64,000 nt of DNA from Blasia pusilla (lineage: Eukaryota). Below are positions 29,365 through 55,003 of the stretch, one piece after another; positions within the stretch are counted from its first letter, which is position 1; every line of letters begins with the position of its first letter. The position numbers and the translations under genes are program-made. The notes below the pieces were generated by a model. It was not told the DNA's origin, searched no databases, and saw nothing but the letters and a program-made list of their open reading frames with translations. The stretch is taken from contig CM114271.1 of the NCBI GenBank assembly GCA_050084515.1, positions 36,394,001 through 36,458,000 of the forward strand. Reading direction: 5' to 3'.

Positions 29365-29441
<77 letters not shown>
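29365..29441. repeat. (AG)n microsatellite, ~38 units
   Basis: Directly visible. Confidence 0.98.
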
Positions 29442-29444
<3 letters not shown>

Positions 29445-30439: not shown

Positions 30440-31205
30440 TTCAATTTTAATTAGATTTTTTTTTCTACTAGCATCAGCTTCCATTTTTCACTCCCTCCTT
30501 GAAGCTGCATTCACCCTGAATAAATTCACCAAGCCTAGAACCCTAATTTCACATGCCTAGGAGAAGTTTCAGGCTTCATTAGTCCTTAGGACTCCACTTG
30601 TGGCCTCTTATGATGTTGAGTTACTGTTCTTACCGACATCTCCATTGAGTTGTATCTTCCCACCATTGGATGGCCCTCAGACTTTTAGGGTTATGGGAAA
30701 CATGCTTTTGAAGTGTATGGACGATGGTCCTAAATGCCTCCTCCCACCGTTGGATGGAGCTCAACATCTGCTAGGATATGTTTAACACCCTTTTAAACCA
30801 CTTGAACGGTTCCGCTCAGGATTTTCCATTTTCCAATTTGGATTTAAAAATACCAATCATCGGAACCATCTTCTATTTTTTACTCCCTTCTTGGAGCTGC
30901 ATTCACCTTGAAAAAATCCACCAGGCCTCCGGCCCTAATTTTACATTTCCTCGAAAAGTTTCAAGATTTTTGAGTCACAAGGACTCCACTTGTGGCCTCT
31001 TATGATGCCGAGTTACTGTTCTTGGCGACATCTCCAATGGATTGTATCTTCCTACCATTGGATGCTTTGATTTTTCTTTTCCATTTACATTTTGGATTTA
31101 AAATTACCGATCACGAGAATCATCTTCCATTTTTTACTGTGTCCTTGGAGGTGCATTCACCTTGAGAAATTTCATCAAGCCTAAAACCCTAATTTCACAT
31201 GCCAT
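30440..31205. repeat. Imperfect direct repeats (2-3 copies of a ~200-bp block)
   Basis: ggactccacttgtggcctcttatgatg..gagttactgttctt at ~30589 and ~30981; gctgcattcacc.tga..aaatt..cca.gcct...ccctaattt.aca at ~30504, ~30896 and ~31150. Confidence 0.75.
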
Positions 31206-31779
31206 GGGAAAAAAATAATCTAGGGTCTCGGCACTGAGTCCCATCTTTGTGAAAATTTACATAATTTATGGATGTTTGGATATTAGCTTTAATATCTATT
31301 TATGACTAGATTAAACACTACTTATATTGTTAATATTATGTGTTGAAATTATTCCATATTTTTGATGCCCTATTAAGTGATAGAAAATTTACAATATTTA
31401 GTGGATTCCTTTATTAATTATCCAAGGAATTTTTTAATTAATCAATTAATTTTTCATATTTTAATGACATATTTTCATTGTACCTCCTAAGGCTGGTTTT
31501 GTGGGCATATCGATATTTTTTTATTTAATATTTTCCAAATTATATTTTCTAGCATACATGTGTGAGAAAATGACTCAGATCAGTGAATGAGTCACGAGAT
31601 ATGAGTAGAACATGACTAAGTCATTTCTAATACTATTTGAGTTGTTATATTATGAGTGATTTGGTTTTCCAGGTCATAAAAAATGACTGAACCAATAGAG
31701 TTACACTTTGAGTCATTTTGTGCATAAGTCATTCTAAGTCAAGTCATAAAACCATAGTTTTCTTCTAGTGCCTCGGAGC

Positions 31780-33513
31780 AAGTACTCGGGACGTTCCCCA
31801 TTGAGTCATGGCATGCGACGGCGGCAAAGTTGGTAGATTTTCCAGCTCGACGGGCTATAGAGAGAGCCATGATCACACTAATTGTGGTATTGTTGGCTAA
31901 TCGAGTAGGAGTGTTTCGCTTGGTTAGTCCCATAGGTACGGTGTACCACCCGCAACGCGTCCTACTTGATTTGGGAGTGCAACCCTTGATGTTAAGGAAA
32001 GTGGCGTGTTTGGCGTTGGGTTTACAAAAGGGTGACATTGAGCGTTGTCCCTTTCATATACAGACCTCTATTGGGGGCGTATAACCCACGCAGTACATGA
32101 CTCAATAGAAGTTGGTGGTTAGACTTCAGCCAGAGTATGAGTCGGATAGTGCGATGGTGCACACTTGGGAGACTACAACATCGACAGAGTCGTATGATGT
32201 GTTGGTAGGGAGTATAGTGTTATATCCCCTTGGTTTCATTCTGGATTTTTGGGAGAAGATGCTTTCTTATCCGCCAGGGTAGCGATCAGGTGATGGACGG
32301 GTGAGCCATTTACCGGTGCTGTTTGCAGGAGTTAGTGGTGGTTGACCGCATGAGGATACGGTGACCACGTTGGCAGCATTCATAGGTGGTGTTCGCTGAT
32401 CATGAGGGTTTGGGGAGAGGAACACACATGCGGAAGACATTCCCATAGCGAATAGTCCCACGGAGAGACATGCTAGGGTGGATGTCTCTTCCCATGGTGA
32501 AGAGCTTCTTTATTATTTTTGGGGACGAGCGTTGAGATGCGTTGAGTGCAGATGAGCTCGTGAGGCAGGCGTGGAGCCGTGCCAATGTCTAGAGCAGGGT
32601 ACAAGAGTGTAAGATCTCTCCGGAGGGATCAACATGACGGGTTGCTGCAGTGTGGTAGTGTTGGGGGGATGACGGCACCGATGGTGCTAGATGTGTATAG
32701 GATAGTAGATCTTGTCGGGTACATATGTATGTGCTATCTGGAGCTAGGAGGACCCAACTGCCAGATAGAGGGGCGGTTTTGAGACTCGGTGTATATACGT
32801 GAGTATATTTGGTTTATGTGTGGATCTACTCGTATGTTGGGGAAGATCGGTGTTGTGTGTTGTGTAGATGTGACAAGCGATGTGGGTTGTGTAGCAATGT
32901 GTATGCGCACAATAGCTGTCACATCTTATTTCGACATAGATAGAGTTCTATTGCGTCGACGACATAGAGAGTCAGCGGGCTGTTCGGGTGTAACTTTGCC
33001 TCGAGATGTCGGATGAGGTTGGCGACAGGTCTGTTGTGTCGGGAAAATTGTTTATGGAGATTTCCCTATTTTGGTTTTATTCCGTTAGGTGATCTGTTGA
33101 CACATAGGTTGCCGTTGGTAGGGCTATTTTTGGGAGAAGAGCCTTTTGGCTCTTCCCAAGGGTATAAGAGTGAGGAAGATGGCTTTTCCGAGCCATCTTT
33201 CTCATGTTTAGCCTTAGGAGCACCTCTCTTGCATAGATGTGTGTGGGTGTGTAGGAGTTAGGGTGCTAGCATCCGGATTCCCTCATAGCAGTGGGTGGAT
33301 GTGGTTTGATATGCCAATGTAGATTCATGAGTGGAGTTTTAGGTCGGATGAGCCATTTTTACTACTCTTCATTTTAAGTTGTAGGACTCGGTGTATATGC
33401 CTGAGTATATTTGGTTTATGTGTGGATCTATCCCTATGTCGGGGAAAATCAGTGTATTGTGGTGTGTAGATGTGACCAGCGATGTGGGTTGTGTAGCGAT
33501 GTGTATGCGCACA
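31780..33513 (+). mobile_element. Degenerate internally deleted Ty3/Gypsy element, family 2, 3' part: protease region, PHD remnant, PPT, then A-B-A terminal repeats
   Basis: VFRLVSP..RVLLDLGVQPLML (protease region); possible PHD remnant LLQCGS..RHRWC..YICMC at ~32608-32735. PPT GATAGAGGGGCGGT 32764-32777; A 32778-32911, B 32917-33377, A 33380-33513. Confidence 0.8.
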
Positions 33514-34399
33514 ATATAGCTCTTTGCATGTAAAATTCCATAAGTATTAGATGTGGGCATAGGTTCTCTTAGATGAATGTGGAACCCACATGATGATGTA
33601 TGAATATTATTATGTGGATTCCACATTTCAAAATGTGGAACCCACATAATAATAGTTCATGGTGGAAAGCAACGCAAGGGTGGGCAAAACAATAAGGGGG
33701 AAGGGAGTGGAGGTAGGAGGAGGAAGAAACAAGAAAGTGTGGATCATGAAGGGAAGTGAGGAGGATGGGAAAGAAGGGGGAGATGGGGCCCACATGGACA
33801 AGTTCTTCTATAGGACGAACATAAGTCCACGTACATGGACATGTAAGCGTACACGTATGTAGACAGGAATTTTGTCTATATGCAATCTTGTAAATAGATG
33901 TTAGAAGAAATTTTTTTTAATGAATTTCTGAAATTTTTAAAGCTGAACACTTGTAAGTTATAATTTTAGAAAATTGATCCAATTCATTATATCGGCAACA
34001 ATTTCTCTATCATAGAATTTTATGAACATTTTTTGTTCATCATATAAATATGAATTTACACATTCCATAGAATCCCATATAAAAGTTCTTTTATGCTTAT
34101 ATGTATCTTTTGATAGAAAATAGATCATACCATTGATCTTGAAGTGCTAATATGTTTAAAATAATCTTTTTAAATGTATAAGAAAATTGATCATATCATT
34201 ATTATCATCGCTGAGTGCCTCTTTGATTTTCAATCTCCTCTCTGGTTTCACACATAACATTTTTAGAAAATCAAGTCTTGATACATATCCTTGGATAATT
34301 CAGAGTCAGTAATGGGGGCACTCAAGTTAGGGATCAAGGTTGATTTGGGGTAACTCACACCATAGAGACGCCCTTCTCAAAGTGGTCTAGGGCACTTAA

Positions 34400-34725
34400 T
34401 AAAAATGAAGTAAGTTTTTTGCAAGACTCTCAATGTATCGGATGCTTGAAAAGCGCATTGATTGAACTTAATATGTTTGCCATAGAGTCTTGGTACAGTC
34501 AAGCTTTTGCAATAGGGTTTGGGGTTTGGAATTATCCACCATGAACCCCACGTGCATCGCCTGGTAAAGACCGAGCAAGTTTTAGGCAAGAGTATCGATG
34601 TATAGGATGCTTGAAAAGCGCATTGATTACACATAATATGTTTTCCATAGAGCCTTGGTACGATCAAGCTTTTGCAATAGGGTTTGGGGTTTGGAATTAT
34701 CCATCATTAGCCCCATGTGCATCGC
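34400..34725. repeat. Tandem duplication, ~165-bp unit x2
   Basis: ggatgcttgaaaagcgcattgatt...tcaagcttttgcaatagggtttggggtttggaattatcca at 34440 and 34605. Confidence 0.85.
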
Positions 34726-36353: not shown

Positions 36354-36825
36354 GGTAAAGTGAACTCATTCATTCACTGTCATTCATTCTCGCTGAACTT
36401 CATTTATTGCTAGATAGAGTAAGACATGTCTCTGCTTTATGAGTCTACATTGCTTTGAGCTCTATGAACTAAAATACTGAGCTCTATGTAGTTACGGATG
36501 AACATAGGAGGCTCAGTTTTCCCTGAATAAGCGGCCCTTGATGAGATCTCAAGATCAGCTTGCGCGTTCTTGACGTCCCCTACCCTGGTAAAGTGAACTC
36601 AGTCATTCACCGAGCTCTACTGTCATTCATACACGCTGAACTTCATTTATTGCTAGATAGAGTGAGACATGTCTCTGCTTTACAATTCTACATTGCTTTG
36701 AGCTCTATGAACTAAAATACTGAGCTCGGTGTAGTTGCGGATGAACATAGCACGCTCGGTTTGCCCCGATCAAGCGGCCCTTGATGTGATCTCAAGATCA
36801 GCTCCCGCGTTCTTGACGTCCCCTA
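36354..36825. repeat. Tandem duplication, ~233-bp unit x2
   Basis: ggtaaagtgaactca.tcattcac...ttcttgacgtcccctac at 36354 and 36587. Confidence 0.9.
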
Positions 36826-38454
36826 CAGCAGCAACTTTAACGAATTTTCGAGAGCTCCTACACATTCAACGTTCGCTCCATCACCTCCAGAGCTCCTCAC
36901 ATTTCGGGCAGCTTCCGACATCTACAACATCCGAAACAGCAAAGGAGTAGAACGAAAACTACCTAGAGATGGCAACAAGAATCACAGCGAAAAAGTCAAC
37001 ACAAGGGAGAGGAAAGAGTGTGTCCAAGGTAACAAGCTCGAAAAAACATTACGGTGTAAAGTCACCAGATCTCGGAGCATTGGAGAGTACAAAATGGTCT
37101 CCAATAAGTCATGGGGACTGTATGCGCTTGAGCAAATGGAACAAGTTGCACTGTGATGGTCCCACTTGGGGAGAGCCGATCACCCCCGTGCATGCACCGG
37201 GATTTGAGTATGCAATAAAGGACTCCATGCCCGCTGCAGTCCTCCCTACCGATTCCGACAAAGGGTACGATCCGAAGCCAGTTGGAGGAGAGGGAATAGA
37301 TGTTGTAGAGGAGGAAGGGACTCCTCCCTATCACATAAGGAGACCCGGCATAGAAAGGGAACATACCGAGGAGGGAGCCTCTGCTAAGAAGCGGAGAATG
37401 ACCCCCCACACTAACCGAAATCAGCAAAGCTCACCATCCAAGGGAAGGTCCGCGGTAACTCCGTAGTGCACAAAGAAATCCCCACGTAAAGGGCAGAAGG
37501 GGAAAGAAGTTGTAGTGAATATTCAGATCCATATCTGAATTTGGGATCTAGGAGAGGGTGAGCATGCCGATCAGGAGTAGAGTAAATCATTAGTCATGTA
37601 TTGCTTACTTTGAAATGAAAGCGACATAAAAGTTTTTTGAATGTCTCTGCCAACCCCTCTTTCAGTATTCAACTTGAGTACTAACTCCACCCATTTTGCC
37701 CCTACGTGTCCCAGGTGTATATGTGTAATAGGAGAGAAATAGCTTCGGAGACCAATAGCCTGGCTATCAAAAGAGAAACTGTAGCGAAGTGCTAGGGATC
37801 GGTAGCCCGTTGGGCTACCGATCCCTAGCACCCTATCGATCGGGTTGCGCTATGCCGAAAGAATGTACTATCAAACGAGCCCGACCATCAAAAGCACAGT
37901 AGCCAAACTAAATCCCCGAGACCCGATGTGCAATGTTGTGAGAGCCCGACCATGAAGAAATCCCCGAGACCCGATCTGCAAGGTTGTGAGAGCCCGACTG
38001 TCAATAGCACCCGAGTCACACAACTAGCAAGAGAGCCCGACCGTCAAAAATACCCAGAGTCGAACAAGTAGCAAGAGAGCCTAGCAAGATAACCTGAGAG
38101 TTGGAGAGTTAGGGAAAGAAGTCAATCAAGAACACCGAAGAGCAGAACCGGAAAGGGGATGAGCTTGACTGTCACAAAACCAAAACTGACCTTCAATGTG
38201 CAGATCGAGTTTGAAAGGCGATTCTCAGGGGAGATGTTCAACCACCGAGGTGTACAAGCCCGGCACGGACTGGGAGAGGGGGACTGGGACTCGGAAGCGA
38301 ATTGCAAAGCAATTTTGAGTCTGGATAGCTTGCATTCAGATCTCCAAGAGCTGCGGCAGGTTCGCTGCATTCGAAGATATTCCTGAGCGTTCGCCGAAAG
38401 GTACCCGAGTCAAAGCTAGCAAGACAGCCTAGCTCAAAGCCGAAAATGAACATT

Positions 38455-39010
38455 GCAGATCGAGTGCGCTTGAGTGTGCACGAGCCGGGAGGAGGGTGCG
38501 CTGGAGTGCTCGAGCGCGCTTGAGTGCTCGTGTCCGGACGGAGGGGCGCGCTCAAGCGCCCCTGTATAACGCACTGAGAGAGCGGGCGCCTGAGGGATCA
38601 GAGAGGAGGGCGGAGAGAGCTAGCAAGAGAGTAAATCAGCTACCTAGGGAAAGACAGACAAATTCCATCATATGAAAGGTAAGGTGCATAGTACCCAACG
38701 AAAACCCTAAACGAAAATGAGCTGAAAATGAGCCAAAAATGAGCGCACTCGAGCTCGTGCGCTCGAGTGCGCACGAGCCGGGAGGAGTTGGAGTTCTGGA
38801 GCGCACAATCCGGGAGGAGTCGGAGTTCTAGAGTGCTCGAGCCTAGCCGAAAATGAGCCGAAAATGAGCGCACTCGAGCTCGTGCGCTCGAGTGCGCACG
38901 AGCCGGGAGGAGTCGGAGTTCTGGAGTGCTCGAGCGCGCTTGAGTGCTCAAGCGTGCACGAGCCGGACGGAGGGGCTCGCTCAAGCCAGAGAGCAGACGC
39001 ACTCAGAGAG
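38455..39010. repeat. CpG-rich palindromic repeat array (CTCGAGTGCGCACGAGCCGGGAGG-like units)
   Basis: Multiple copies of ctcgagtgcgcacgagccgg(g)agg and aaaatgagc; internal palindromes such as gcgcactcgag...ctcgagtgcgc. Confidence 0.85.
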
Positions 39011-39435
39011 CGGGCGATCCGAGAGGAGGCGGACGGACGAGATTGCAAGGGCGAGCGACTGAGAGTGGGGGTGGGAGTGAAGGGCTTGGACGATTGGGTA
39101 GGGGGGAGGGTGGAGGGGGAAGGGTGTAGGGTGACGGCTCACGGCTCATGCCGTGAGCCGTCAGATGCACCATCTAACGGCCTCTTTTTCCTGGCCGTTA
39201 GATGGGAGAGTGATCAGCCAACGACCCTAGGATTCGAAGGCAGCGCATGCATGGGGGCGGGGCTCGGTTCAGGGCTAGGGTTGGGAATGTTAGGTTAGGG
39301 CCAGGCTCGGCCTATCGAACCTGGGTTTTTTTTAATGAATTTCCTTACAATTTTTTTTAAAATGTAAATTTCTCCTTTTTTACCTTTTTTCCCAATTTTT
39401 TCCCAATTTTTTACAATTTCTAATTTTTGAGAAAA

Positions 39436-39655
39436 TTAAAATAAATCTTCCCCCTTACTCTTCTTCCCTAAATTCTTTTCTTTCCCTAAATTTCATTTTA
39501 TAAATTTCATTTTCTCTTGGTTTTTCTTTCAATTTATAATTTTTATTAAAATAAATCTCCCCCCTTTCTCTTCTTCCCTAAATTCTTTTCTTTCCCTAAA
39601 TTTTATTTTATAAATTTCATATTCTTTTTTTTTCATTCAATTTATAATTTTTAAA
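39436..39655. repeat. AT-rich tandem duplication, ~110-bp unit x2
   Basis: ttaaaataaatct.ccccctt.ctcttcttccctaaattcttttctttccctaaattt repeated. Confidence 0.85.
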
Positions 39656-39799: not shown

Positions 39800-42700
39800 A
39801 TGATGAGTGTTGGTGGATCGTCACTAAACAGGGAGAGACGGCCACTTGGTATTATTACAAATATGCCAATTTCGCAACAAAGTTCGGGAAGACATATTGA
39901 AGTATCGAAAAATACCTCCCCGATGTAAGAACCTTTGCTTAGGGTAGGGACTTAAGCACCTTATTTCCATTTCAACGATGATGCCTTACATACCATTTTC
40001 TCCACAATATATTTTTCTCATGCATTAAACCCAATTTTTGCATAGACTTCCTCTTCCATCAAATCCTACGGATTTGCGTGACTTCCGAAAATTGATACGT
40101 GCGAATGCACAACACAAAAGGCGTGTCCGTCGCAAGGAAATCTTAGCTCAACAAACACGTCTCGAAGATGAACTCCGACCTGAAACATCTCCAACGTAAG
40201 TTTACTACATCGACGTTCATTTAGCCTGTCCAATTTCCCACAAAATATTGACTTTTCATTTAATTTTGTAAGCTTTTAACATTCATGTGTTGTTCCAGAC
40301 TTCCAATCCCATTGAATCCTGTCAATATACGTGACTTTCGGAAGGTTCTACGTGGCGAAGCCCAAAAAAGAAAGCGTGCTATTCGGGCTGATAGAATGGA
40401 AGCTCTCAAAGAAAGAAAGAGGAATTACCATCGAGAGTATAGAAAAAGAAGGAAAGGGCTTAATGGTCAAGTTCAGCCAGAGAGTTTTCGTCGACCGCTC
40501 TTCCTATTCAAGTTCAAGATGAAGTTGTCGACAATTCGTCGACCACTCTTCCTATTCCTGTTCCAGATGAAGTTTTCAACAATTCGTTGACTTTTGCCCA
40601 ACTTGGGGATGAATCAAGGTCAAGAGTAGATGCCATATCTCCTAATGGAGTTTTGTTATCTCCACAACGTGCCACTGTACCAAACACTTCTATAATTTGT
40701 GCATCGTCTACCCTTGATAGAGTTGTAAGATTAAATACAACTCTCAATCTTGCAAGGAGGCCAAATTTTCAAGAAAGTGATATTCGAAAGTTGCGATTAC
40801 AAAGGAGTTTGAATCGCATCATGGTAAATCATACATTAGGTTCTATGATAGAGATATGTCCCTCATGCCGTGCTTTGCATTGGAAATATGAAGTGGTCAA
40901 AGGTACTAAGTTTGGTGACTCACCATATGGCATGTGTTGTGGCCATGGAAGAATATACTACCTCTCTTGAGATCATCTCCTCCATTTCTGGAATCCTTGA
41001 TTTCGGGTGTTGGTCCTAGAAGCGTTCATTTTCTTACACATGCTCGAGCTTATAATTTGGCACTTCAACTTGCATCTACCCGGGTACATGTAAACGAACA
41101 AATTGGTGGCACTGGACACTTTAGGGTCCAAGGCGGGATCTATCATTCCATTGGACCTTTATATCCTGATATTGGGGGACATCCTCAATTTGCTCAACTA
41201 TACATCCATGATACTGCAAATGAATTGGAAAATCGTGCTAGAGTTATGTCTACATCTTCTATTCTTAATATGGATAGTTTGAAAGGTCTCCAAGACATGT
41301 TATATGAATGCAATCCATATGTGAAGATCTTTCGTCATATGGCATATGAAGCAAGTGATCTTAATGTGCGGATTATCCTCAAGGCAAGTAAGAGAGGACT
41401 TGACTTGACTTGCAAGGCGTTATAACTTACCAATTGCATCTGAAGTTGCTGCTATTTTGCCGGGTGATGGAAGTGAACATGTTGAGCATCGTGATATAAT
41501 TGTACGACTACATGGAGGAGGAGTCAAACGTATATTCGACCTCAATGAAGCATATATTCCCTTACACTTTGTTTTGTTATTTATCTATGGTGAAGCAGGT
41601 TGGCATCCTGGAATACCCTTTGGGCGAATTGAAGGTTGTAGGGAATCTCGACAATTGGGCCACATTATTCATGGAGAGGAGGGACATCCTGAACGTGCAG
41701 ATGATTGCATGGATGAGGACATAGTTTATGGTGATATTGTTGAGGAAAGAAGAACAAAATGTGTTACGGCCTTGCAATTTGCATGTTTTCGACTTCAAAC
41801 TCGCGTTGGAGGAGAAGATGACAATCGCTTATTGCGGCTTCGTCGACTTACTCAAGAATATATGGTTGACCTCTATGCCACTGTGGAAATGCAACGATTA
41901 TCATGGGTGCGCTTAAATCAGAAGGAGTTGAGGGCTGAATTATATCAAGGTGTAAAGGATGCCATGCATCGACAAGATGCGGATAGCCGAAGGCTTGGGA
42001 AACAAATTATATTACCTTCTTCTTTTATTGGAGGGCCACGTCATATGCATCAATTGTATCAGAATGCAATGGCAATTGTACAACATTTTGGGAAGCCTGA
42101 CTACTTCTTAACCATGACATGCAATCCAAAGTGGGAGGAGATTACTTCAGCCCTATTACCGGGCCAATCAGCTGCAGACCGACCAGATTTGGTTGTGCGG
42201 GTTTTTGAGAAGAAAAAGAAGGAGTTGTTACGACTTATCATCAAGAAGCAGATATTAGGCCGAGTTGTAGGATGCATCCATGTGGTGGAATTCCAAAAAA
42301 GAGGATTACCGCATGTGCATGTCCTTATTATTTTAGGTCGTGAGGATAAACCACGTACCACAAGTGATTATGATCGTATTATTCCAGCTGAAATCCCTTA
42401 TCAATCTACCCATCCAAGGTTGTATTCTACCGTTGCTAATTGCATGGTTCACGGTCCATGTGGACCATTAAATCCAAATGCTCTGTGTATGGATAAGGAA
42501 ACAAGAAAATGTACAAAAGGCTATCCTAAAGCTTTTGCGGCCAACACTACCGAAACAGAAGATGGTTATCCGATATATCGTAGGTAAGGACCCTTTTATT
42601 TTTTAGGCATATTTATTCATGATTCCTTCTAATACATTCATTCATGATTCATTACGATTGTTATTGTATTTTTGTAGATTGGAGAATGGAAGGGCGATAA

Positions 42701-43364
42701 TTAAGAGCGAACATTCATTGGATAATTGTTGGGTTGTACCTTACAATCCGATGTTATGCACCCTATTTGATTGTCACATTAATTTGGAGATTACAAGTAG
42801 TGTTTCTGCTGTCAAGTACTTATACAAATATGTTTATAAAGGATCTGATGTCGTGTCATTTAAGTTGTTAAAGCATATGGATACATCCAATGTAATCAAA
42901 GTTATTGACGAGACAACGTCATATCTTGATGCGAGGTATGATTTTATGGATTGACTTCTCTGATGCATTATATTTTATTTCTCAACTTCATGTAATTATG
43001 GAAGAGTCCTTCTCATGTAATTTCTCACTCAAATACTTGGAATTCTCATTATTCCAGATATATATCTTCTTCGGAAGCATGTTGGCGTCTCTTTAAGTTT
43101 AGTCTACATGTTGAACTTCCAAGTATCGTACGACTAGCAATCCATCTTCCAGAACAACAATTAGTCTACTTCAATGATGTTGACGCTCCTAGAGATATTT
43201 TGCAACTGAAAAGAGAGACAACATTGACCCAATGGTTTGCGACCAATCTATCTGACTCTAGTGCTCGAAAATATCTATACATAGATTTTCCTTTTTATTA
43301 TCGTTGGAGTAACAAGAGATGGATTCGTAGGGTACAAAAACAAAATGGTTGTGGCCATCCCATT
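39800..43364 (+). pseudogene. Helitron RepHel gene, 5' half (Zn-finger, Helitron-like N, HUH Rep domain), intron-containing, frameshifted
   Basis: CPSCRALHW..CCGHG; PQFAQLYIHD; ILPSSFIGGPRHM; FLTMTCNPKW; VEFQKRGLPHVHVL (HUH); YLYKYVYKG (Y2). Cut at ...CGHPI by the Gypsy insertion. Confidence 0.93.
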
Positions 43365-43942
43365 TGTCGTGCGAATCCCCATCGTCATACAACATACATC
43401 GCTGACATACCATACTCACATACATACATAACATAGACGAGAGTATCCACAAACGCAAGTGTACCACAATTGAAACCGTGAAAGACCATGTCATAAAACA
43501 CGTTTACAATCACATACAATCGAGCCAAACCCACTCCACGATGGGAGAATCTAGGTCTAAGCTTATGGAAACACCATAGCCAAGAGCTCTACTCACTACC
43601 AAGGCTAACTCCCAACGCAATGAGGCTCAACTCAAAGAAGTGATCGTTCTTTGAGGGCAAGCCACCTTATATCCTCCAACCTAAGAGCGGGCCCCACTGG
43701 GAAAGTCACCCCAAGTGAGTAACCCACAACCCTATGTATGGAACCGCATCTCTACCAAGCCACTACGGTCCTACATAAGTAATGGCCTCTACCAAAGACT
43801 ATATACTCTACGACATAATCCGTATGGTCATGACAAATTTGTCGGCGAATCCCCATCGTCATACAACATACATCACGACATACCATACTCACATACATAC
43901 ATAACATAGACGCAGAGTATCCACAAACGCAAGTGTACCACA
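43365..43942 (-). repeat. 3' terminal repeat block: A (43942-43840), AATT, B (43835-43471), AT, A (43468-43365)
   Basis: The two A copies (~103 bp) are near-identical; B (~365 bp) matches 52278-52643. PPT AGAAGGGGGCGAGT (43956-43943) abuts the first A. Confidence 0.92.
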
Positions 43943-44120
43943 ACTCGCCCCCTTCTGGCGGTTAGGTCCTCTAACTCCCAAGTAGCCCTATACATCTACT
44001 ACATGCTATACACCTTCTTGGGTGCCCGAATCAGAAGGCCGGGTGCTAGGTTGCCCCATCGTTAGTCGCACATCCGTAATCCATATCATGCAAAGATCAA
44101 GTCATCTACCTCTCCTAAGT

Positions 44121-44257
44121 ACATCGAGGACAAACCCACCTTCCAAAAGAGGAACAACATCCAAACGTGAGTCAAACACATCATGTGCCAACCCCTAGAA
44201 CACCGATCACACACCAACATACGGGTGCGTTACAAGAGACCCACACAACATGCACCT
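44121..44257 (-). pseudogene. PHD finger at the C-terminus of pol (frameshifted)
   Basis: Reconstructed RCMLCG...MLVCDRCSRGWHMMCLT..LDVVP..GRWVCPRC (C4HC3 spacing). Confidence 0.8.
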
Positions 44258-44449
44258 CAAGCTAGCACATATCATGGCTAAGCTTGGGTCAATGAACCAT
44301 CCACATTTGGAAGATGACATGGCGCACAATTACGCACATGGTCCTTCCAAACAACTCCATCACGACCCTCCAACATGAGAACTCCGAAGCTAACACCTCA
44401 CGCACTCGTAAAATAGTGCGGCCTGCCGTCACATCCAACGTTGTCGGGC

Positions 44450-45420
44450 ACCGCTGCAAATAGACATAGTCCCCACATGGAACCTACGAATCGATGGTCG
44501 ATAACCTCCACTTCGAATGGTTGCATACCGCAACCTATCCCTCGTGTTGAGCAATGGCAAGATTCTCAAAGGTCGTTGGTATAACTCTCCGAAAGAGCTC
44601 CGCCCGCGAGAACACACTCTCATCCATATCTCTCGGGTCATCAAGGTCCACCACCTCACTAGACTCGACTAATTGCTCTTTGGCAAGTCCGGATCTCGGC
44701 CGATAACAGTAAAATAAGGTGAGAAGGAAGCCAAGGATGCTTGGCGATCGAACCTATACCCCATGGCTAACCATGGCAACCGAATATCCGGTCTCCAAGA
44801 TGCCCTTCAGAGGCCATACTTGCGCAATGCCCTCTTCACCGCCTGAACCACACGCTCAACCAAACCATCCGCCTCTGGATGATCTCGAGACGTGGTCCGA
44901 TGATCAATCAACGCCTTGTCACACAAGACCTGAAACTCACCCAAACTCAGACTCGGTCGGTCAAGACTTCAATTTGGTGCACCAAAATGACTAAGCACTC
45001 TATCCAGAACGCATACGCCGTTCCTCACTTGCATTGTCCGTAATGCCACCAACTCAATCCACTTGGAGAAGTGCTCCACCATCACCAACACATATCGATG
45101 ATGTCGCATAGTCAATGGTAACGGTCCCCAAAGTCCACACTCCAACGGTAACCCAACCCCATAATAGGCAAGGGGTGTAATTGTGGTATAGGGGCATTAA
45201 ATGATGCCTCACCAGTCACAAACCATACAACGTGACACCAATCGCTGCACCGAGTATGCATGCCACGCCACCAATATCGCCAAGGAGTAAGCTATACGCA
45301 CGCTTTACCCCAAAATGTCCCAACTCCTCATGGGCTTGTCGCACAATGCGCTCTCTCGAGCCAAATGTGGCACTACTCGTACTCTACCATCCTCCCACAT
45401 ACGGAGAATATGTGTTCCCT
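44450..45420 (-). pseudogene. Retroviral-type integrase (frameshifted)
   Basis: Fragments HEELGHFGVKR.YSL, WSVDF.GPLPL..HRYVLVMVEHFSKWIELVAL, DH.TTSRDHPEADG, AQHEDRLRYA. Confidence 0.85.
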
Positions 45421-45699
45421 CCAATCGATACCTCTTAGCACGTTGAAGAACACGGTCTCGCTCCTTGGCACTCACTATGCCTGGCACCCTACTGGTCCGT
45501 AGGAACTCCAACACCAACGCATCATCATGAATATCACGCTGATCCGCACCACCATCTCCAACCTTAGATCAAGGGTCGACCATCTACCCTCGACTAGAGT
45601 AAGATATCATGTGGTCCTCCATACTAGAGTCCACCTAACCAACATAAAAGGCGGATGCATGCCAACCTGGCACCATCTCCTCATCAACCTCGCCATGCC

Positions 45700-46960
45700 A
45701 TCTAGCCCCAGCTTGTATCCTCTTGGCTAGTACATGGGTTCCTACTCAACCCATCAAGATCAAGGTTGGCAACCAGGTCTATGTACCACTTGGAAGTCAT
45801 ACTCTTGTAAGATAAGAGCCCACCGTGCAAGCTTCCCCTGTAAGCTTGTCCGACTCCATCAACCACTTGAGCGGTGGTGATCAAGAATAAGGGTAAATCG
45901 TGTGCCAAACAAGTAACACCTAAAGTGTGCTCTGACCCACACTCTCGCCAAGCACTCTCCCTCATATGAACTATAGCGCGACTCCGTTGCATTATTCGAA
46001 CGACTTGCATAGGCCACCACAAACTCCATGTGCTCATCATCATGTTGTGTCAACACCGCTCCAAGTCCCAACCTACTCCAATCAATGTGTAACTGAAATG
46101 GGCGCCCTCTGATAGGTCTCCTCAAGATAGGCGCCGCCACCAATTGGGCCTTAAGCTCCCCAAAAGCTCTCTCCTGATCATCTCCCCAATGCCACTCTTG
46201 ATCTGATTTCAGCAATTGGTTCAAAGGCTTTGCCATAGCACTAAATCCCTTCACATACCTCCGATAGTAGTTCGCCAATCCCATGAATGCTCGAACTCTA
46301 CTCACATCTACCGGACGCGGAATAAGTGCAATAGCGTCCACCTTTGCTTGCTGAACTCCCAAACCACCTGGATAGATCACATGACCCAAGTACTCAACAT
46401 CCTCATGGAAGAACTTACACTTTCCTGGATGCAAACGTAGACCATGAGCTTTCAACCGCTCAAACACCATCTGCAAATGTATCCGATGCTCCTCCACCGT
46501 GTTATCGAACACCAAGATATCATCAATGTAACACCGAACAAAATCCAACCTTGCTAGGATCCCGCCCATCACTCTTTGAAACTCGGCAGGTGCATTCTTC
46601 AACCCAAAGGGTAAGAATTCCCATTGGTACAAACAATCCTTGCCATGAGAGTTGACACCCCAAAATGTTGTCTTGGCCTTGTCACTCTCCCGAATTGGCA
46701 ATTGATGGTATCCTGCCCGAAGATCCAAAATCTGAAAATCTTTGCCTGTCCCACCACATCAAAGATCTCTCAGTGTAGGCATGGCATACCTATCGGCCTT
46801 AGTTTGCCGATTGATAGGACGGTAATCTCCACACATCCGCCTATCCGTAGTTGCCATGCATATCCTTTTTAGCAGCATGACAAAGGGCGATGCATACTCT
46901 CCATGCGACAACTCCACTAATCCGGCCTCCAAAAGGTCCAACGCCCTACTCAATCAGGTC
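45700..46960 (-). pseudogene. Reverse transcriptase + RNase H (Ty3/Gypsy type)
   Basis: RRMCGDYRPIN, DLRAGYHQL, LPFGLKNAPAEFQR, CYIDDIL, YLGHVI, FQLHIDWS..GLGAVL, YASR..ESRYSSYEGE. Confidence 0.95.
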
Positions 46961-47449
46961 CCTCTCCATATCACTATATTGGTAGGGACGACGGAAGTTT
47001 GGCGTATCACTAGCCAAATCAATCCGTGATATCTGTGGTCCAACCAAAGAACCCAACTCCTTCATGCTAAAGGCAAAACAACTCCTATAAGCACGTAGGA
47101 ACGTGTCAGCGCCGTTTCTCACCTCCCGTAAGCTTGGGCCCAAGTAATGGCTCCCAAGTCTCCTCCACTTTGGCATACTAGAGGGAGAGGACGATGCCAT
47201 TGGCTACACGCAACCCCTCACAAGATGATACACCCTTAGCTACACCATCATCCGAGCAAATAACTCCTCCACCAAAGATGAGCAACCAACTCCACATGCC
47301 CAACCATTACATCCCATTTACTCCAAGGATGCAAAATACTACTCTCTCGCCCCACCGATGCCTCTATCGCCCCGGTAGCCATCGAGCTCATTACAAGGGG
47401 TGGAAGACCTGACATAGTCCGAAGTCGACGTATTTGCTCGGCCATACCA

Positions 47450-48410
47450 AGACTCAAAATCCAAGTCAAACAATTCAGGTCCATGGCCTGACCCAACACA
47501 TGACGTCGTGAAGACTCAGAAATAGAAGCAACCGTTGTCACGCCAGTAGTAAATCCCATCGCACGCTCTCTCTCATCATCAGCGTTAGGCTCCACCAACG
47601 CCGCACATGAGAATCCCATACAAGCCCGGACCACCTTCCCGTAGGCATGACGCGGGAAAACTCACAAATGTGGGTAGTGCCATCCTAGGCTGGCCCACAC
47701 GGTTCACCACTGCCATGGGTGACCGATCAATAACCCTCACCACTTGAGAAAGTCGCCCAGTATCCAAGATACTATCCACTGTAAGGCGAGGATCCCGTTA
47801 ATCGCATCATATGCTCGACGAGAACCTCCCTAGGCAACAAGTTTGTCCACCACAAGCGTGGGCGATGTGCACGCTGAGCCAACTTCGCTGCAGATCCAAC
47901 AACACCTGGTCCAATCCAAGACCGCACCTCATGAACACTCGCCATCATCCGGGTCCGAGTCTCACCTAACAATGGAACATTCTCGAATGTAAGCTAGAGC
48001 ACGTGCTTGATGAGCTCAAGATGTCGTAACACCCGTAACATCTCCCAAAACAATCGAGACCTAGGGTCATGTAATCCCTCACCATGACCAAAGACGTGTA
48101 TGACCGACATGGCCATCCAAAGCAATCACCAAATCCACAGGACCAACCCTCTCAAGGTCCTGCGCTCAACAATGCAATGTGTGATGGTAAAGCACGCTGG
48201 TACCCACAAATAGCCGATGGCGGCAACAACTCAGATATCTCCGCATCAATCGACCAATATGTCGGGATGAGACTCTCGGGCCGTCTCATCTTGCTCCACA
48301 TACACGTATCTCCAAGACAGAATACCGCCCGCACATCTTGCCGCCAAACCGGTGCTAATCCCACCAAAGAGATCTAACACACAAATGCCCTCCGGCGGAT
48401 AACGCCATAC
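47450..48410 (-). pseudogene. DNMT3-like C5 cytosine methyltransferase domain inside pol (frameshifted)
   Basis: Motif I VLDLFGGI; IV DLVIA.GWPC (48107-48118); GL.DPRSRLFWEMLRVL; VI ENV (47976-47984); VIII AHRPRLWWTNLLP; IX/X ERERAMGFTTGVT...RRHVLGQAMDL. Confidence 0.88.
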
Positions 48411-48849
48411 AATGGGTGTAGTATCCAAAGGGGATAACCTAATCGGGCTGTAGTAGGAGTCCGTGGGGCCTCCTCTTCCTTGTGAGGTATAAGACCTCAC
48501 ACCAAGCCTCTGCACTAGGCGATCAGCCTCCTACCGTAGTGTACCGCTTTGAACTCCAAAGTGGCACATCCAACGATGAGGATGCCACCGCTGCAAAAAT
48601 AGGGACCTCTCTCTACCTCCTCATGCAGGAGAATCCAGCGTAAACATTACCTTCCAAAAAGTCTCCGGCCAAGTGACTACTCCACTAAAACCAACCACAG
48701 ATGCTAACACCTTTGTTGGGGAAGACCCTCCGGTCGAGCCCCGAAATAAATCTCACAGAACTTGGCTCATACGTCCATCCTCGGATCGCCAACCTGGTCT
48801 ATAAGACGTTGTCTCACCCAAGAATCCATCTGAAAACCCATCGGGTACA

Positions 48850-51300
48850 CATCGCTCCTCCAACTAGTACATCATACGACTCGGCCGATGTGACTATCGA
48901 GATACTCCCAACCGGAGCTATCGATCGCATGATCTGGTCTCAAATGCATAAAAAACTCTCTCGTGTCATGAATTGAGACCTATCATTGGCTCCTCCAAGT
49001 GATGTTTGAATCTGGAATGGGCAAGGCTCAAGCTCGACCTCCGAATACCCAAACCAATACATGCCGCTTTCCCAACATCAAAGGTCGGGCACTGAGTCTA
49101 ACAAGACTCTATCTGGTCTATACACTGTCTGTAGGACTCACCAATCGGAAGATCCCACTCCGGTTGTCCAACATACATACACCAGGTGTAAGCCTCTCAC
49201 GATCAATGGCTGGCCGGGTGGTAATGCATCCATCTTCGCCGCGCCGCCGCCAAGTAGCACCGGTACTCAATGCTACTCCCGACATAGAAGGTCGCTCCAC
49301 CGCAACATCCTCATCCACCTCAACACGTGCAAGAAACACCCCACGTTCACACAATGTGGTCGCTAGCTGAAATACAGAGCTAAGTCAACTCCTAGAGCCA
49401 TCGCCCGTGGGTTAAAACAATGGGGATCCCAACACCGGTTGCCATCCGCACATCGCACTTTCGATCTTCGCATCCATGTCTACTACACGCGATGTAGATG
49501 CCTCAGTCCCCACTGTCGGCTCAATAGGCTGCGTAGGAACCATGGATGGAGTCCTAAGCACCTCAGACAACAAGAATGACTGGGGAAGCCTAGCCTGCCT
49601 CCCAGCCTCACCCCTCTGTGGGTCCAACTCCACAAGAGCACCACGTGGCTCGACGCTTTCGAGTGGCTCCTCTCGAATCGCAGGTGATGCCTCAATGTGT
49701 GTGCCGACTCGCCATATAAGAGAGATCATCCCTCCATAAGAGGTGGAAGCCCTCGCTCCCAAACCGATCGATCTATGCCGCATACCACCCATAGTAGCCA
49801 ACTCTCGCTCCAATCTGCTCAATCCTGGCAGCCATAGCTGACTCTGTCGTAGTGGTAGGGGTAGCCACCGTAGGCTCTCCAACCACTGGTCCACCTCTAC
49901 CACCCCTACCACCTCTACCACCTCGGCCTCTCGGAGCTACTCCACCACGGCCACGGCCTGATCTCAACTCTGGATGAAGATCAAAGCAACGCTCTCAAGG
50001 ATGACCTAGTCTCCCGCAATGATCACACTGAGTTGGGGCCGACTGAGGCCCATCCTCCAAAGTCCGTCTCCCATCCTCTTGGGGACAAAACTTCCTAACA
50101 TGATCACCTCCACATGTCCAACATGATCGCCCTTTGCTGGGGCAGCAAATGAAGGCAATGGTCTCTGCACAAATGTCCCTCTAGGACTTGACTGAGGTCG
50201 CGTGTACCCCCCACGACTCCCACTACTACTACCACCACCACTACTACAAGACTGTGAGGTGGGCGGCTGAACACGAGAAGTAGTAGTTGTATCCCTACTG
50301 AATGCGGATGTCACCACTCTCTCCTTCACCATGTTAAGCTCAATCTTCTCAGATAGAGCAAACACATGGGTCAATGTGGGTGAATCATCACTCATAAGAG
50401 TAGCATCACGTACCCTACGGCGCAAATCTCTGTCCAAGATCCCATACCAAAACTGGATTGCCTGATCCTCAATCACACCCTGGGTAATTGAAATCAAGCA
50501 TCGCATATGCGTGTATGCCTCACGAAGACTCTCACCAGTCTTTCGCTCAAAGTCCTGAAGATTCCTCAACTTCTCCGTCTTCACTCCTTGATAGTTCTTC
50601 TTCAACCTCTTGAAGAACTCTGCAACCGGGCTAAACGATGGTGGGGCACTAGTACCTCCACTAGTACCCCACTAGTACCTCCACTGGTACCCCCACTCCG
50701 ACTCGCACTGCACCACTCGGCGTCGGGCCGGGCCGGGCATAGTAGGAGCACTACTACCAATACCACCATGGGTGATAGACACATAGCCGGAGACCAATAT
50801 TGTCTCCATGCCTCAATCTCAGCAACATGGTCCTTCCTAAACTCATGGTAATCATCCATGGGTGGTCCTTCCAAGTTTGAAACAACCCCTTCCAAGCCAA
50901 GAAGGGTGTAAACAACGCATGCTCCGCAACATCCGCATATCACACCACGTATCAAACTCCTGCATGAAGTCCTCCAACTCAATGGTACCCACTTTGCACC
51001 GAGTATCGTCGTGGGCCCTTCATGGCCCCATATCCACCGTCCATGTCCCAAATCAATGGAGCGCAACACTCGATAACAACGTAGAAGACTCGGTGTTTGG
51101 AACACCTCGCCCTCCTCCTCTTCATCAACCGTCGGAAGTGGAAAAAGTAGCCGATACCTAAATCCACTCTGTGTGAAACCACCATCGTCCGCACCACGGT
51201 CCCCAACCAGACCACCCGACAAACTCGTGATGACCAACGCCGATGCCGCATCACCACCAAATTACCCAAGTGACGTCGATGTCGCTCTACTATTGTAGCT
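48850..51300 (-). pseudogene. gag (with zinc-knuckle remnants) and aspartic protease
   Basis: LEGPPMDDYHEF, ERKTGESLREAY, RG-rich tract, RVLLDS.ARPLMLGK (protease active site, ~49070-49110), YDVLVG. Confidence 0.8.
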
Positions 51301-52277
51301 CTACTAGCTATGGGTGTAGGCAACCTAACCTCTCATCACCACAAGAAGACTCCCACGGTCTACTGGTCATCACTCCAGCCTCACTATCAGTAGCACACAG
51401 GAGTAACACTACTATGGAAATCAACGTCAACCCTAACAATGGGCGCGCAAGCAAGAAGCACAATGGAGGGGATCCAAACACAGGAAATCCAACGACAACC
51501 CTCCAATCGCAAATGGAAATCAAGGTTACACAATCCACCAAACGTGGTGCCCTCTGAATCCACAAAACCCACCACACAATTCTAACGCAATAGCTACTCC
51601 GCCGCGGGTCGATGACGTGCTAGTCAAACTCGCACCATCTGAAAATATCACCTGCATGGAGAGGCTACACCGTACTATGCGCTAGAGGTACATCAACCAA
51701 AAACCTGAGATGCATAAAGTGCCTAACACCTCTCCGAACAGCACCAAATGAGCTACAATAGTCTGTACACTGGCATAGTTAAGAACTCAGCAGTTAAGCG
51801 TCCTCCAAACAGAATAGCCCAAAGATGGGTGACCAGTTATGCAAAACTCAAATCGTGCAAAAATTGCCTCACGCCCAAGCAAGCAAGCTTGCTTGCTTGC
51901 TCCTTGCTCCTTGCTCCTTACTCCGCCTCTCACGCCCACTCGCCCCGAGCTACCACGAGTTGCCTCGAAGCCTCGAAGCCTCGAAGCCTCAAAACCTCAA
52001 AACACCGAGACATGCCCCTATCGCCCCGTTCGCCACGCTTCGCCATGCTTCGCTATGGAGAGAGGTCCAACCAGGGCGCCCCCAACGGGATAGGCGTCTC
52101 CAACAATGAACAGGTCACCAACCAACCAGCCCCTCCGATCCGCTGTCCACCATAGCCAAACCTTGAGCTAGTCCGCGAAACTGGTGCGAACATCCACAGC
52201 TGAGTACACAATCAGCCCTAACCAGATCCTACTGATCTACAATCGAAGCTACCATCGATCTACTCCAGTTCTTTGAG

Positions 52278-52643
52278 TGAAATCCGTGAAAGACCTATTG
52301 TCATAAAACACGTTTACAATCACATACAATCGAGCCAAACCCACTCCACGATGGGAGAATCTAGGTCGAAGCTTGCGGGAAACACCATAGCCAAGAGCTC
52401 TACTCACTACCAAGGCTAACTCCCAACGCAACAGGCTCAACTCAAAGAACTGACTGTTCTTTGAGGGCAAGCCACCTTATATCCTCCAACCTAAGAGCGG
52501 GCCCTACTGGGAAAGTCACCCCCAAGTGAGTAACCCCCAACCCTATGTATGGAACCGCATCTCTACCAAACCACTACGGTCCTACATAAGGAATGGCCTC
52601 TACCAGCACTATACTCTACAACATAATCCGTATGGTCATGACA
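52278..52643 (-). repeat. 5' terminal repeat: B segment only, containing the TATA box (52481-52476)
   Basis: Near-identical to 43471-43835; lacks the A segment. Confidence 0.92.
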
Positions 52644-55003
52644 CATTGGTCGCTTATACCTTACTCATCCAGGTAAATGCTCACAACTTCTTTGTACATA
52701 ATTCCTTTTATATTCCACCTCTAAAGTAGTGTATCTATATGTTGGGATAAACTCATTTAGTTTAATTCCTCATAGGTGAAGGAGAACGTCATTGGTTGAG
52801 ATTACTTCTCCATCATGTTCGAGGAGCAACTATCTATGAATGTTTGAGAACTGTTAATGGGATATTATGTCCAACATTCAAGGAGGCTTCTATCCAATTG
52901 GGACTTCTTGAGGATGATAGGGAAGTGTTCTCTTGCTTTGAAGAAGCTTCTACAATTCGTACAGGTTCTTCACTTCGTCGCCTATTTGCAATTATTCTAG
53001 CGTACAACACACCTGCTCAACCTGCAACACTTTGGAGTCAACTCTTGGCTCCAATGGTAGAAGATCTCTTATATGAACGGCGTCTGGTAAGAATTCATTA
53101 ATACCCTTGCATATTTTTTTTATTCTTAATAGTATCTTCTATTGAGCATTCAACAGTCTAACAAATTTTGGGTTATCATCTTATTTTGTAGAAAATTGGA
53201 ATTCCTAATCTTCTCGTTGAAGATGCTATGGTTAATACTGCATTGTTGGAAGTCCATTATTATTTACAAGATCAAGGAAAAAGACTGTCAGACTTTCCAG
53301 ACATGCCCCAACCTGGCTTCCAACGACTTCAATTAAATTTATATTTGGAGGAACAAGAGCTTTTGTATGATACGGAAGAACTATTTGAGCAAGTGCAATT
53401 AGGAGAAGCATTTTTAAATGAAGGACAACGGATTATTTGGGATGCTATAGATGATGAGTTTGATAAAATATGCTTGGATGCTCCACCATCTCCAAAAGTC
53501 TTTTTCATTGATAGCCCAGGTGGAACGGGAAAAACATTTTTATATAATCTTCTTCTTGCAAGTGTAAGGAGTGCAAGAGGTATAGCTTTGGCTGTGGCGT
53601 CATCTGGAATAGCTGCTCTATTGTTAGACGGAGGACGTACTGCACATTCGCGATTCAAAATCCCCATAAATCTTCATGAGAGCTCTACTTGCAAACAAGT
53701 GCCAATTCTGGTGATGCAAAATTTTTAATTTCCTCCAATTCTGGTGGCACAAGTTCTAATTTACTCCCCTTTTCTTACTATAGTTTGTCGGTTAATAGTG
53801 ATGGAGCGCGCTTAATCCGTGATGCAATGCTTATTATATGGGATGAAGCTCCTATGGCTCATCGTCACCCATTTGAGGCTGTAAATCGGACTTTACAAGA
53901 TATTATGGGAGTTATTTTTTATGAACACCGACAATTACCATTTGGTGGAAAACTTATGGTATTTGGTGGTGATTTTCGTCAAGTGTTGCATGTTGTTCGT
54001 CATGGGGATCGGCCGCAAATCATCCAAGCCACCATAAAGAGGTCATCTCTTTGGTCTAATGTAAAGGTCATGAAGTTGACTACAAACATGCGAGTTCAGA
54101 CGTTGGAAGGTCACTTGCGTAGTGAACAACAAGCTTTTGCTGATTGGTTATTAGAAGTGGGAGAGGGTCGCGTACCTTTGCATCCACATTTGGGAGAAAA
54201 TTTTATACAATTACCATCTGAAATTGTTACTAGAAGTAATAAGATATGTGATCTTATTGATTTGATATATCGAAATTTTCCATCCGAAGTCAATGACATT
54301 GATTTCTTGAGAGATACGGCAATTTTGACTCTAAGAAATCAAGATGTAGATGACATAAATGCAAGCATAATGTCACGGTTTCCAAGAGAGATAATCCTTT
54401 TAACTTTTATAAAAGAGTTATTCAATTATAAGTTTAGATATTAATATTACCGTTTCTTACAAACTCATTATATTTTGTGTACAGGAGCAAGTTTACCTCA
54501 GCGTCGACTCTATTCCAAACGAGGGGATGACTCATAGATATCCAACTGAATTTTTGAACACATGCTTGCCTTCAGGACTTCCTCCGCACCGATTGTGTTT
54601 GAAGATTGGGGGACCAATCATGCTGTTACGAAATATGAATGGAGCACATGGACAAGCAAACGGGACAAGATTGGTGATTCATGGATTTATGCAACATTGC
54701 ATAGATGCTGAAATTGTCACAGGGAAAAATATTGGAGATCGAATTTTTGTTCCACGTATCCCATTGATTGCATCACATTCAGATTTGCCATTTGATTTAC
54801 GTAGGTTTCAATTCCCTATTTGACCGGCTTTTGCTATGACTATCAATAAGTCCCAAGGTCAAACTTTGCAAAAGGTGGGCATTTACTTGCCTACTCCAAT
54901 ATTTTCTCATGGCCAATTGTATGTACCATTATCTAGAGTAGGGAAGAGAAGTTCTATCCAGATTATAATTGGAAGCGAAGATTACTATATAAAAAATTCT
55001 TAA
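52644..55003 (+). pseudogene. Helitron RepHel gene, 3' half (PIF1 helicase), intron-containing, premature stop at 54821-54823
   Basis: SPGGTGKT (Walker A), ASSGIAA, GGRTAHSRFKIP, IIWDEAPM, FGGDFRQ, NGTRL, FPI*PAFAMTINKSQGQT, FSHGQLYV.LSRV. Confidence 0.93.

Follow-up and report, generated by a model that had tools for sequence, protein, structure and literature searches.

The 64,000-nt stretch of Blasia pusilla DNA analyzed here (assembly GCA_050084515.1, contig CM114271.1, positions 36,394,001–36,458,000; 'the window') contains a degenerate retroelement copy of 9,279 bp on the minus strand (43365–52643) that interrupts a Helitron gene. As read directly and by alignment, the copy contains two sequence blocks, A and B, each present twice. 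In the sense orientation the order is B-PBS-internal-PPT-A-AATT-B-j-A, where PBS is the primer binding site, PPT the polypurine tract and j a single A. The terminal and internal copies of A (A1 and A2) are 96% identical over 105–109 nt, and the 3′ and 5′ copies of B (B1 and B2) are 93% identical over 370–379 nt (BLAST). The integrated ends read TGTCATG... and ...CACGACA in sense, and a 4-bp target-site duplication (TSD), CATT on the plus strand and AATG in sense, bounds the copy on both sides; the joint between B1 and A1 reads TTTCA-AT-TGTGG. Matches to Helitron_like_N (41409–42587) and PIF1 (53192–54823) lie on the two flanks, and the Helitron reading frame is continuous across the site, as judged by eye, when the element and one CATT are removed. 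The host gene, a Helitron Rep/helicase on the plus strand (Helitron_like_N, PIF1, Pif1_2B; 41409–43364 and 52648–54823), has an apparent intron just past the insertion site and is itself split into several open reading frames (ORFs). The layout is confirmed as real and beyond chance, since independently assembled relatives show it again between other flanks and with other 4-bp duplications.

The signals for reverse transcription are placed at the inner borders of the repeats. The PPT adjoins the start of A (GGGGGCGAG followed directly by TTGTGG in the window, conserved as GGGGGGCGAG followed by TTGTGG in relatives), and B ends in TTTCA, immediately followed by the PBS. Because the PPT abuts the start of A and the PBS abuts the end of B, the long terminal repeat (LTR) of the cDNA, as set by these two signals, is the composite A+B. 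A PPT before the 3′ LTR and a PBS after the 5′ LTR are the arrangement of Ty3/gypsy elements, and both junctions are conserved in the relatives. The reverse complement of the PBS, AGTTCTTTGAG, lies inside B, 30 nt downstream of a TATAAGG motif. Of the 20 independent 5′ ends, 12 have exactly CTCAAAGAACT as their PBS; its complementarity to the site in B is 11 of 11 in the window copy and in loci L007 and L047, while the L015 subfamily has a PBS of TTCGAAGAACT paired with AGTTCTTCGAA, amounting to two compensatory changes. With the transcript start as predicted, this pattern appears diagnostic of Tf1-type self-priming. Neumann et al. predicted self-priming of this type for the Tcn1 clade, which is described from mosses and club-mosses (PMC6317226). 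A second copy of the PBS sequence is present in each B of the window and of all relatives, just upstream of the predicted transcript start, where it makes up a 10-bp inverted repeat (CTCAAAGAAC, 3–5 nt, GTTCTTTGAG) that spans the U3/R border (in the window, 52441–52466 and the 43655–43680 region).

An alignment of the reverse transcriptase (RT) retrieved 80 related loci on metagenome contigs, with RT identities of 56–82%. Terminal probes taken from one relative matched 48 of these loci and the window, the other 32 being short or ending before the termini; independent counts are given after merging loci that share flanks. All 20 independent 5′ ends begin at B (TGTCATGACC) with unrelated DNA in front, and neither A nor B-j-A lies upstream of this B at any of them. 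On the 3′ side the arrangement PPT-A-s-B-j-A, where s denotes the spacer at the A-to-B joint, is present at 10 independent ends (the window copy, L004, L015/17, L028, L047, L058, L062, L067/68/70/72, L076 and L077), part of B-j-A is kept at two further ends (L021/80 and L041), and at 15 3′ ends the PPT is followed by A and then by flanking DNA. The 12 independent sites with two ends have a 4-bp TSD at TGTC.../...GACA, exact in 10 and matching at three of four positions in two (L028, L073); a control with shifted offsets gave a match in 1 of 455 comparisons. The length of 4 bp at 12 of 12 sites falls within the 4–6 bp of Ty3/gypsy elements. Two complete LTRs with TSDs at the LTR ends are not the arrangement found, since the 5′ ends carry only B (20 of 20).

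With 10 independent A-B-A 3′ ends, the permuted layout is the regular architecture of the whole family. The initial annotation, made from the window alone, had described this layout with coordinates and motifs that hold to within one base by reading and alignment, and it was right that the PPT defines an A+B LTR, with which the PBS agrees, and that the inserted ends lie at an internal palindrome with a 4-bp TSD. It had named copies with TSDs at the TGTGG/TTTCA ends as one observation that would speak against it, and no such copy was found, A preceding B at 0 of 20 5′ ends. It had also treated the window copy as the product of a single exceptional event, and on this point it has to be corrected to a family-wide arrangement.

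Copies of the short form, B-internal-A, have their own TSDs, which are exact in L007, L026, L044 and L048 and match at three of four positions in L073. One 3′ flank, with 97% identity between two metagenome data sets, is shared by L048 (A only at L048:13482) and L058 (A-B-A at L058:8171), which shows either that deletion between the two A copies can produce the short form or that the pair is a polymorphism of one insertion. Comparison of identities within and between elements shows the B pair of an element to be its own best match in four of six elements, a measure that is uninformative for old metagenome copies and for which A is too short. Usable terminal repeats were not found in the more distant RT relatives (L053, L071, L078 and others). 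One rearranged copy (L021:11626–11680 and L080:5670–5725) has a B-to-A joint made of the 11-nt PBS followed by a piece of the PPT, together with an inverted B fragment beside the RT and an exact TSD, CACA; its make-up suggests an origin from an aberrant reverse transcript.

The A-to-B joint s forms the center of the palindrome, reading ...CGACA-GC-TGTCATG... at four independent sites, with AC in place of GC at two and AT at three; the spacer is AATT in the window and is destroyed by deletion in L024/27. A B-GC-A joint (52643 to 43365, with GC between) is seen in one contig each of the public runs X5, X7 and X15, so the GC spacer occurs in other copies within these runs. In run X1 the B-to-A joint has several low-depth variants with sides shorter than 30 nt, which were not used as evidence. 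GC, AC and AT form a transition series, which is what inheritance of s through U3 with decay by deamination would produce. For 13–14 nt to the left and right of the spacer, the window and the metagenome family have the same sequence, and B is alignable between them only at positions 158–344 (BLAST), the rest of the first 157 nt being too diverged. This identity fits a pair of integrase binding sites, and the palindrome would then be the att site of the integrase. The internal A-s-B joint (GACA-GC-TGTC in most copies) consists of the two integrated ends set back to back. In the window copy the spacer AATT is one base apart from the TSD AATG, and the target GCGACCAATG is similar to the end of A, CCGACAAATT; both likenesses are probably due to chance. 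A microhomology or TSD-derived origin of AATT was rejected because no resemblance between target and element end is present at the other sites.

The joint j reads TTTTCA-G-TTGTGG at six sites and has A in place of G at four, G being the last base of the PPT. At the two remaining sites it holds an insertion of PPT-end and PBS sequence: ...CCGAG in L004, and CTCAAAGAA.T plus GCTAG in L021/80. Primer-derived insertions are typical of retroviral 2-LTR circle junctions and, because the insertions at j resemble them, j may be read as the joint between the two ends of the cDNA.

The positions of these features and of the coding regions in the window are listed in Table 1. The window copy is dead, with many stops and frameshifts, and its Pfam scan was run on stop-free pieces of the translations. 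The pol order, RT followed by RNase H and an integrase with an rve core, is that of Ty3/gypsy elements. Integrase ORFs of relatives match the window at 45496–44216 with 50–51% identity (tblastn, E 9e-81 and 4e-84) and score above the Pfam cut-offs for Integrase_H2C2 (1.2e-13) and rve (1.4e-12). The PHD finger reaches 34 bits (2.7e-8, Pfam) in relatives. It ends the integrase (window 44089–44229; L072:11546–12667), at the place where moss chromoviruses usually have a chromodomain, and could steer insertion to particular chromatin.

Table 1. Positions of the repeats, joints, signals and coding regions of the retroelement copy in the window
Feature	Position	Strand	Basis or remark
Left TSD, CATT (AATG in sense)	43361–43364	.	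Direct reading
A1, terminal A, 3′ end of the integrated element, sense end ...CACGACA	43365–43469	-	Reading and alignment
j, one base between the B end TTTCA and the A start TTGTGG	43470	-	A in sense; G in most relatives
B1, 3′ copy of B, with TATA box, inverted repeat at the predicted transcription start, R-U5	43471–43835	-	
Palindrome GACA-AATT-TGTC at the A2/B1 joint	43832–43843	.	Halves are the integrated-end sequences
Spacer AATT in the palindrome	43836–43839		Direct reading
A2, internal A, directly downstream (sense) of the PPT	43840–43943	-	
PPT, sense AGAAGGGGGCGAG, abutting A2	43944–43956	-	Kept in 14 of 14 aligned rows, with minor changes
PHD finger remnant at the integrase C-terminus	44089–44229	-	Weak, 19.6 bits (Pfam)
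Degenerate DDE integrase, H2C2 zinc domain and rve core, with frameshifts and stops	44216–45496	-	
RT and RNase H, Ty3/gypsy type	45862–46758	-	RVT_1 1.4e-26, RT_RNaseH_2 1.1e-28
Degenerate Dnmt3-like cytosine methyltransferase region	47437–48815	-	tblastn with the L072 ORF, E 2.5e-53
gag-like region, CCHC-like motifs by eye	48812–50671	-	Intact related polyproteins carry zf-CCHC
PBS, sense CTCAAAGAACT, directly after B2	52267–52277	-	Complementary to the 11-mer at the predicted transcript start in B
B2, 5′ end of the integrated element, starting TGTCATG in sense	52278–52643	-	Reading and alignment
AGTTCTTTGAG in B2	52441–52451		30 nt downstream of TATAAGG
TATAAGG in B2	52475–52481		
Right TSD, CATT	52644–52647	.	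Direct reading

The methylase region sits between gag and RT. The corresponding ORF of L072 (L072:7898–9298) has DNMT3A/3B as its best PDB matches (4e-8), with a PF00145 score of 18 bits that lies below the 22-bit cut-off. Homologues of the methylase that do carry PF00145 have Marchantia polymorpha, several Sphagnum species, Calypogeia fissa and Riccia as their named sources, and retrotransposon-borne Dnmt3 seems to be widespread in bryophytes. Two intact related polyproteins contain zf-CCHC, an aspartic protease family, DNA_methylase, RVT_1, RNase H, H2C2 and rve, and a PHD finger is listed for one of the two. The lineage encodes gag, protease, a Dnmt3-like methylase, RT–RNase H, a DDE integrase and a PHD finger. 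A tyrosine recombinase (Phage_integrase) was found neither in the Pfam-scanned ORFs nor among the families listed for the intact relatives, and the only candidate integration enzyme in these sequences is the DDE integrase.

The integrated copies read as a circular permutation of A+B-internal-A+B that has been opened at the palindrome of the PBS-side LTR. Their full form is B-PBS-internal-PPT-A-s-B-j-A, and in none of the sequences does the A+B LTR stand at the 5′ end. We consider it probable that the family is a streptophyte (moss and liverwort) Ty3/gypsy lineage whose integration precursor is a cDNA with tandem LTRs (resembling a 2-LTR circle) that the integrase cuts at the internal palindrome. 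Reverse transcription would produce an ordinary A+B...A+B cDNA, whose two ends would be joined to give j, either in a 2-LTR circle or in an equivalent tandem-LTR molecule. In the PBS-side LTR, the integrase would then treat the internal palindrome as two att ends that abut. Cutting after each CA would leave 2-nt 5′ overhangs, and concerted strand transfer of the permuted linear molecule with a 4-bp stagger would complete the insertion. The promoter, R and PBS kept in B2, together with the second R in B1, would allow a terminally redundant RNA to be made for the next round. Because this pair of B copies supplies the promoter, R and the terminal redundancy, only the B-internal-A-B-A form would be able to propagate; B-internal-A could not give a terminally redundant RNA, and copies of that form may be deletion derivatives (by recombination between the A copies) or dead-end products of one-LTR molecules, cut for example at their single palindrome. 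Because the family is always inserted as a permutation cut at a palindrome in the LTR, an ordinary DDE integrase is shown to be compatible with DIRS-like split repeats.

Several of these points had been put forward in the initial annotation, which proposed the integration of a 2-LTR circle by an encoded DDE integrase. It was right about the enzyme, with no tyrosine recombinase found beside it, and about the topology, which equals the split direct repeats of Ngaro/PAT elements; the circle itself was not observed. The annotation had noted that the spacer is lost at the integrated ends, which holds, but the AATT that it took as the spacer is peculiar to the window copy, the normal spacer being 2 bp (GC and its transition products). 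Of the two variants that it predicted, B-internal-A exists (15 ends, at least one of them probably a deletion derivative) whereas B-A-B-internal-A does not appear at any of the 20 5′ ends.

The absence of this mirror form is among the points that weigh against the proposed cycle. A symmetric 2-LTR circle would have two equivalent palindromes, and B-A-B-internal-A would be expected as often as B-internal-A-B-A; the counts are 0 of 20 5′ ends for the former and 10 A-B-A 3′ ends for the latter. One possibility is an asymmetric route; the other is that the ~340-bp B repeats, only ~115 bp apart as they would be in the B-A-B-internal-A form, collapse much faster than the 105–113-bp A repeats. The circular or tandem-LTR cDNA is deduced from the layout, and no such molecule was observed. 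All of the copies seen are old and degenerate: none of the 11 full copies has long ORFs, and repeat pairs are 86–96% identical. The window spacer AATT falls outside a simple transition series from GC, the window integrase is itself weak in Pfam and is identified by its similarity to relatives, and sequence is the only basis on which the transcription start, the poly(A) site and self-priming are predicted.

We consider it unlikely, with an appreciable residual chance, that the same family architecture is produced by an asymmetric route that involves no closed circle. In one version of this route the plus strand, once at the B end of the linear cDNA, jumps end-to-end onto the A end, creating a tandem LTR on the right-hand side, and the integrase uses the outermost palindromes. 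In a second version an intasome forms on a linear cDNA, at the palindrome in its left LTR, both cut ends are inserted, and host end-joining makes j. An asymmetric route explains why B-j-A is seen at none of the 20 5′ ends and A-s-B-j-A at 10 3′ ends, and the extra base at j (G at six sites, A at four) would fit either a PPT base that was kept or one added without a template ahead of a template jump. The sequences do not distinguish such a route from a circle. Both versions call for an unexplained preference, be it for one end or for one LTR, and no intermediates have been observed.

Explanations that make the layout exceptional or misread fare much worse. It is very improbable that the window copy alone arose from aberrant integration of a 2-LTR circle within an ordinary LTR family. 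By itself the window copy is compatible with such an accident, but the permuted layout occurs with its own TSD at nine further independent A-B-A sites, and a canonical 5′ LTR is present at 0 of 20 independent 5′ ends, which already contradicts it. We give equally little credence to a canonical element whose true LTR is B-j-A, the 5′ LTR having lost its A and A2 being an internal duplicate. B-j-A does have TG...CA ends, a terminal inverted repeat that matches at six of seven positions (TGTCATG/CACGACA) and flanking TSDs. However, it is A2, not B1, that adjoins the PPT, and B2, not an A, that adjoins the PBS; these two junctions are conserved throughout the loci, and an identical loss of A would be needed at 20 of 20 independent 5′ ends.

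An artefact or secondary event, such as misassembly of repeats, a nested solo LTR beside a truncated element or a microhomology-mediated rearrangement, draws some support from the resemblances of the window target to the end of A and of AATT to the TSD, and from the short contigs of four public read runs, none of which spans the window copy. The same layout is nevertheless present in independent metagenome assemblies, at different sites, with unrelated TSDs and without resemblance between target and end. With these assemblies being independent, the layout cannot be put down to misassembly, to a nested solo LTR or to rearrangement at the site, and we give this explanation only the slightest chance. 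A cycle of the DIRS/Ngaro/PAT type, in which a tyrosine recombinase integrates a closed circle by site-specific recombination, shares the split-direct-repeat topology (A1-internal-B1-A2-B2; PMC8969392) but is the hardest of all to credit, given the rve integrase, the lack of a tyrosine recombinase in the scanned ORFs and among the families listed for the intact relatives, and 4-bp TSDs at 12 of 12 sites, whereas DIRS elements are described in the same source as having none.

Beyond the family itself, the proposed cut at a palindrome in joined-end cDNA leads to a broader reading. The whole streptophyte lineage of LTR elements with DDE integrases may integrate obligatorily via joined-end cDNA and an att palindrome inside the LTR, with split repeats being permuted LTRs that are independent of tyrosine recombinase; such a lineage would bridge LTR elements, the DIRS/Ngaro/PAT group and IS3-like circle-junction transposition. 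We put this forward tentatively, the balance of probability being slightly on the other side.

An element of this kind has been noted once in print, and the window family is a bryophyte member of a known but uncharacterized kind. According to the legend of Figure 4c in de Mendoza et al. 2018 (PMC5890265), the KnitGypsy-Dnmt3 element of Klebsormidium nitens has Gypsy domains and repeats in a DIRS-like arrangement. It resembles the window family in its Gypsy pol domains, a Dnmt3-like methylase within the polyprotein, DIRS-like repeats and a streptophyte host; its host is a charophyte alga, whereas homologues of the window family have bryophytes as their named sources (Marchantia, Sphagnum, Calypogeia, Riccia). 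The main text of that report gives no TSD, PPT or PBS, palindrome or mechanism for KnitGypsy-Dnmt3, the term TSD appearing once, for another element (PMC5890265). A K. nitens protein is among the homologues of the window RT, with 53% identity, and was not assigned to KnitGypsy-Dnmt3; no K. nitens protein was among the matches of the methylase searches. A literature search gave no account of a mechanism and no further example, the combination being mentioned only in PMC5890265, whose supplements were outside the search. What is added here is the occurrence of family-wide 4-bp TSDs at an internal palindrome, the LTR defined by PPT and PBS, the behavior of both joints and the missing mirror form.

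The repeat topology of the window family is identical to that of Ngaro/PAT-type DIRS elements, and in both the internal joint holds two element ends back to back. The split-direct-repeat layout is found in the window copy and at nine further independent sites, but DIRS elements have a tyrosine recombinase and no TSDs (PMC8969392), and the window family has 4-bp TSDs and an rve integrase, along with a PPT and a predicted self-priming PBS. Tf1/sushi elements and Tcn1-clade chromoviruses share with the window family, as far as its transcript start is predicted, a PBS complementary to the start of their own transcript and not to a tRNA, TSDs of 4 or 5 bp, and hosts that include bryophytes (PMC6317226, in part). 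They are described there with ordinary LTRs and a chromodomain, whereas the window family has permuted LTRs, a PHD finger and a methylase. Retroviral integrases reportedly cut palindromic LTR–LTR junctions (PFV, PMC1180852; HIV-1, PMC1905944 and PMC4372172), which likewise places a DDE integrase on abutted CA-spacer-TG ends within a palindrome of a circular molecule. In the retroviral case, as far as these accounts go, the palindrome is the junction of the LTR ends and its cleavage a side path, whereas in the window family the palindrome lies 105–113 bp inside the LTR and is apparently the only site used.

Our comparison extends to two systems that lie further afield. In the IS3 family (e.g. 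IS911), a circle with abutted ends is the integration substrate. A DDE enzyme, abutted inverted ends a few bases apart on a circle and short TSDs are points of likeness; these are bacterial DNA elements without reverse transcription, and the resemblance to the window family is one of logic only. TOC1 of Chlamydomonas is said to have an 'unusual arrangement of long terminal repeats', one terminus bearing part of an LTR and the opposite one a complete LTR together with the remaining part.

Elsewhere in the window, a second and more distant relative is present in fragments on the plus strand (25600–33520). It includes gag-like and methylase-like pieces (28273–29360), a duplicate of the gag-like piece (31809–32537) and direct repeats at 25764–26025/33106–33375 and 28271–28941/31909–32597; no RT was found in these fragments. 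Families of short tandem or dispersed repeats upstream of the Helitron (30350–31210, 34400–34725, 36354–36826, 38427–38935 and 39435–39633) are unrelated to the element.

To our knowledge, the replication and integration of split-direct-repeat elements have been argued only for tyrosine-recombinase elements, and only from sequence. The family described here combines a split-repeat topology with textbook LTR signals (a PPT, a predicted self-priming PBS, a TATA box, R, a DDE integrase and TSDs), which makes each step predictable and testable by standard assays, and the origin of split repeats becomes a directly testable question. With its methylase, the family brings the range of retrotransposon-borne Dnmt3 genes from a charophyte alga into land plants. 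It is abundant in bryophytes, and programs that search for LTRs would mis-annotate its copies systematically. If the proposed cycle is correct, one natural lineage would normally integrate through circles or tandem LTRs, which have long been dismissed as integration precursors in retroviruses.

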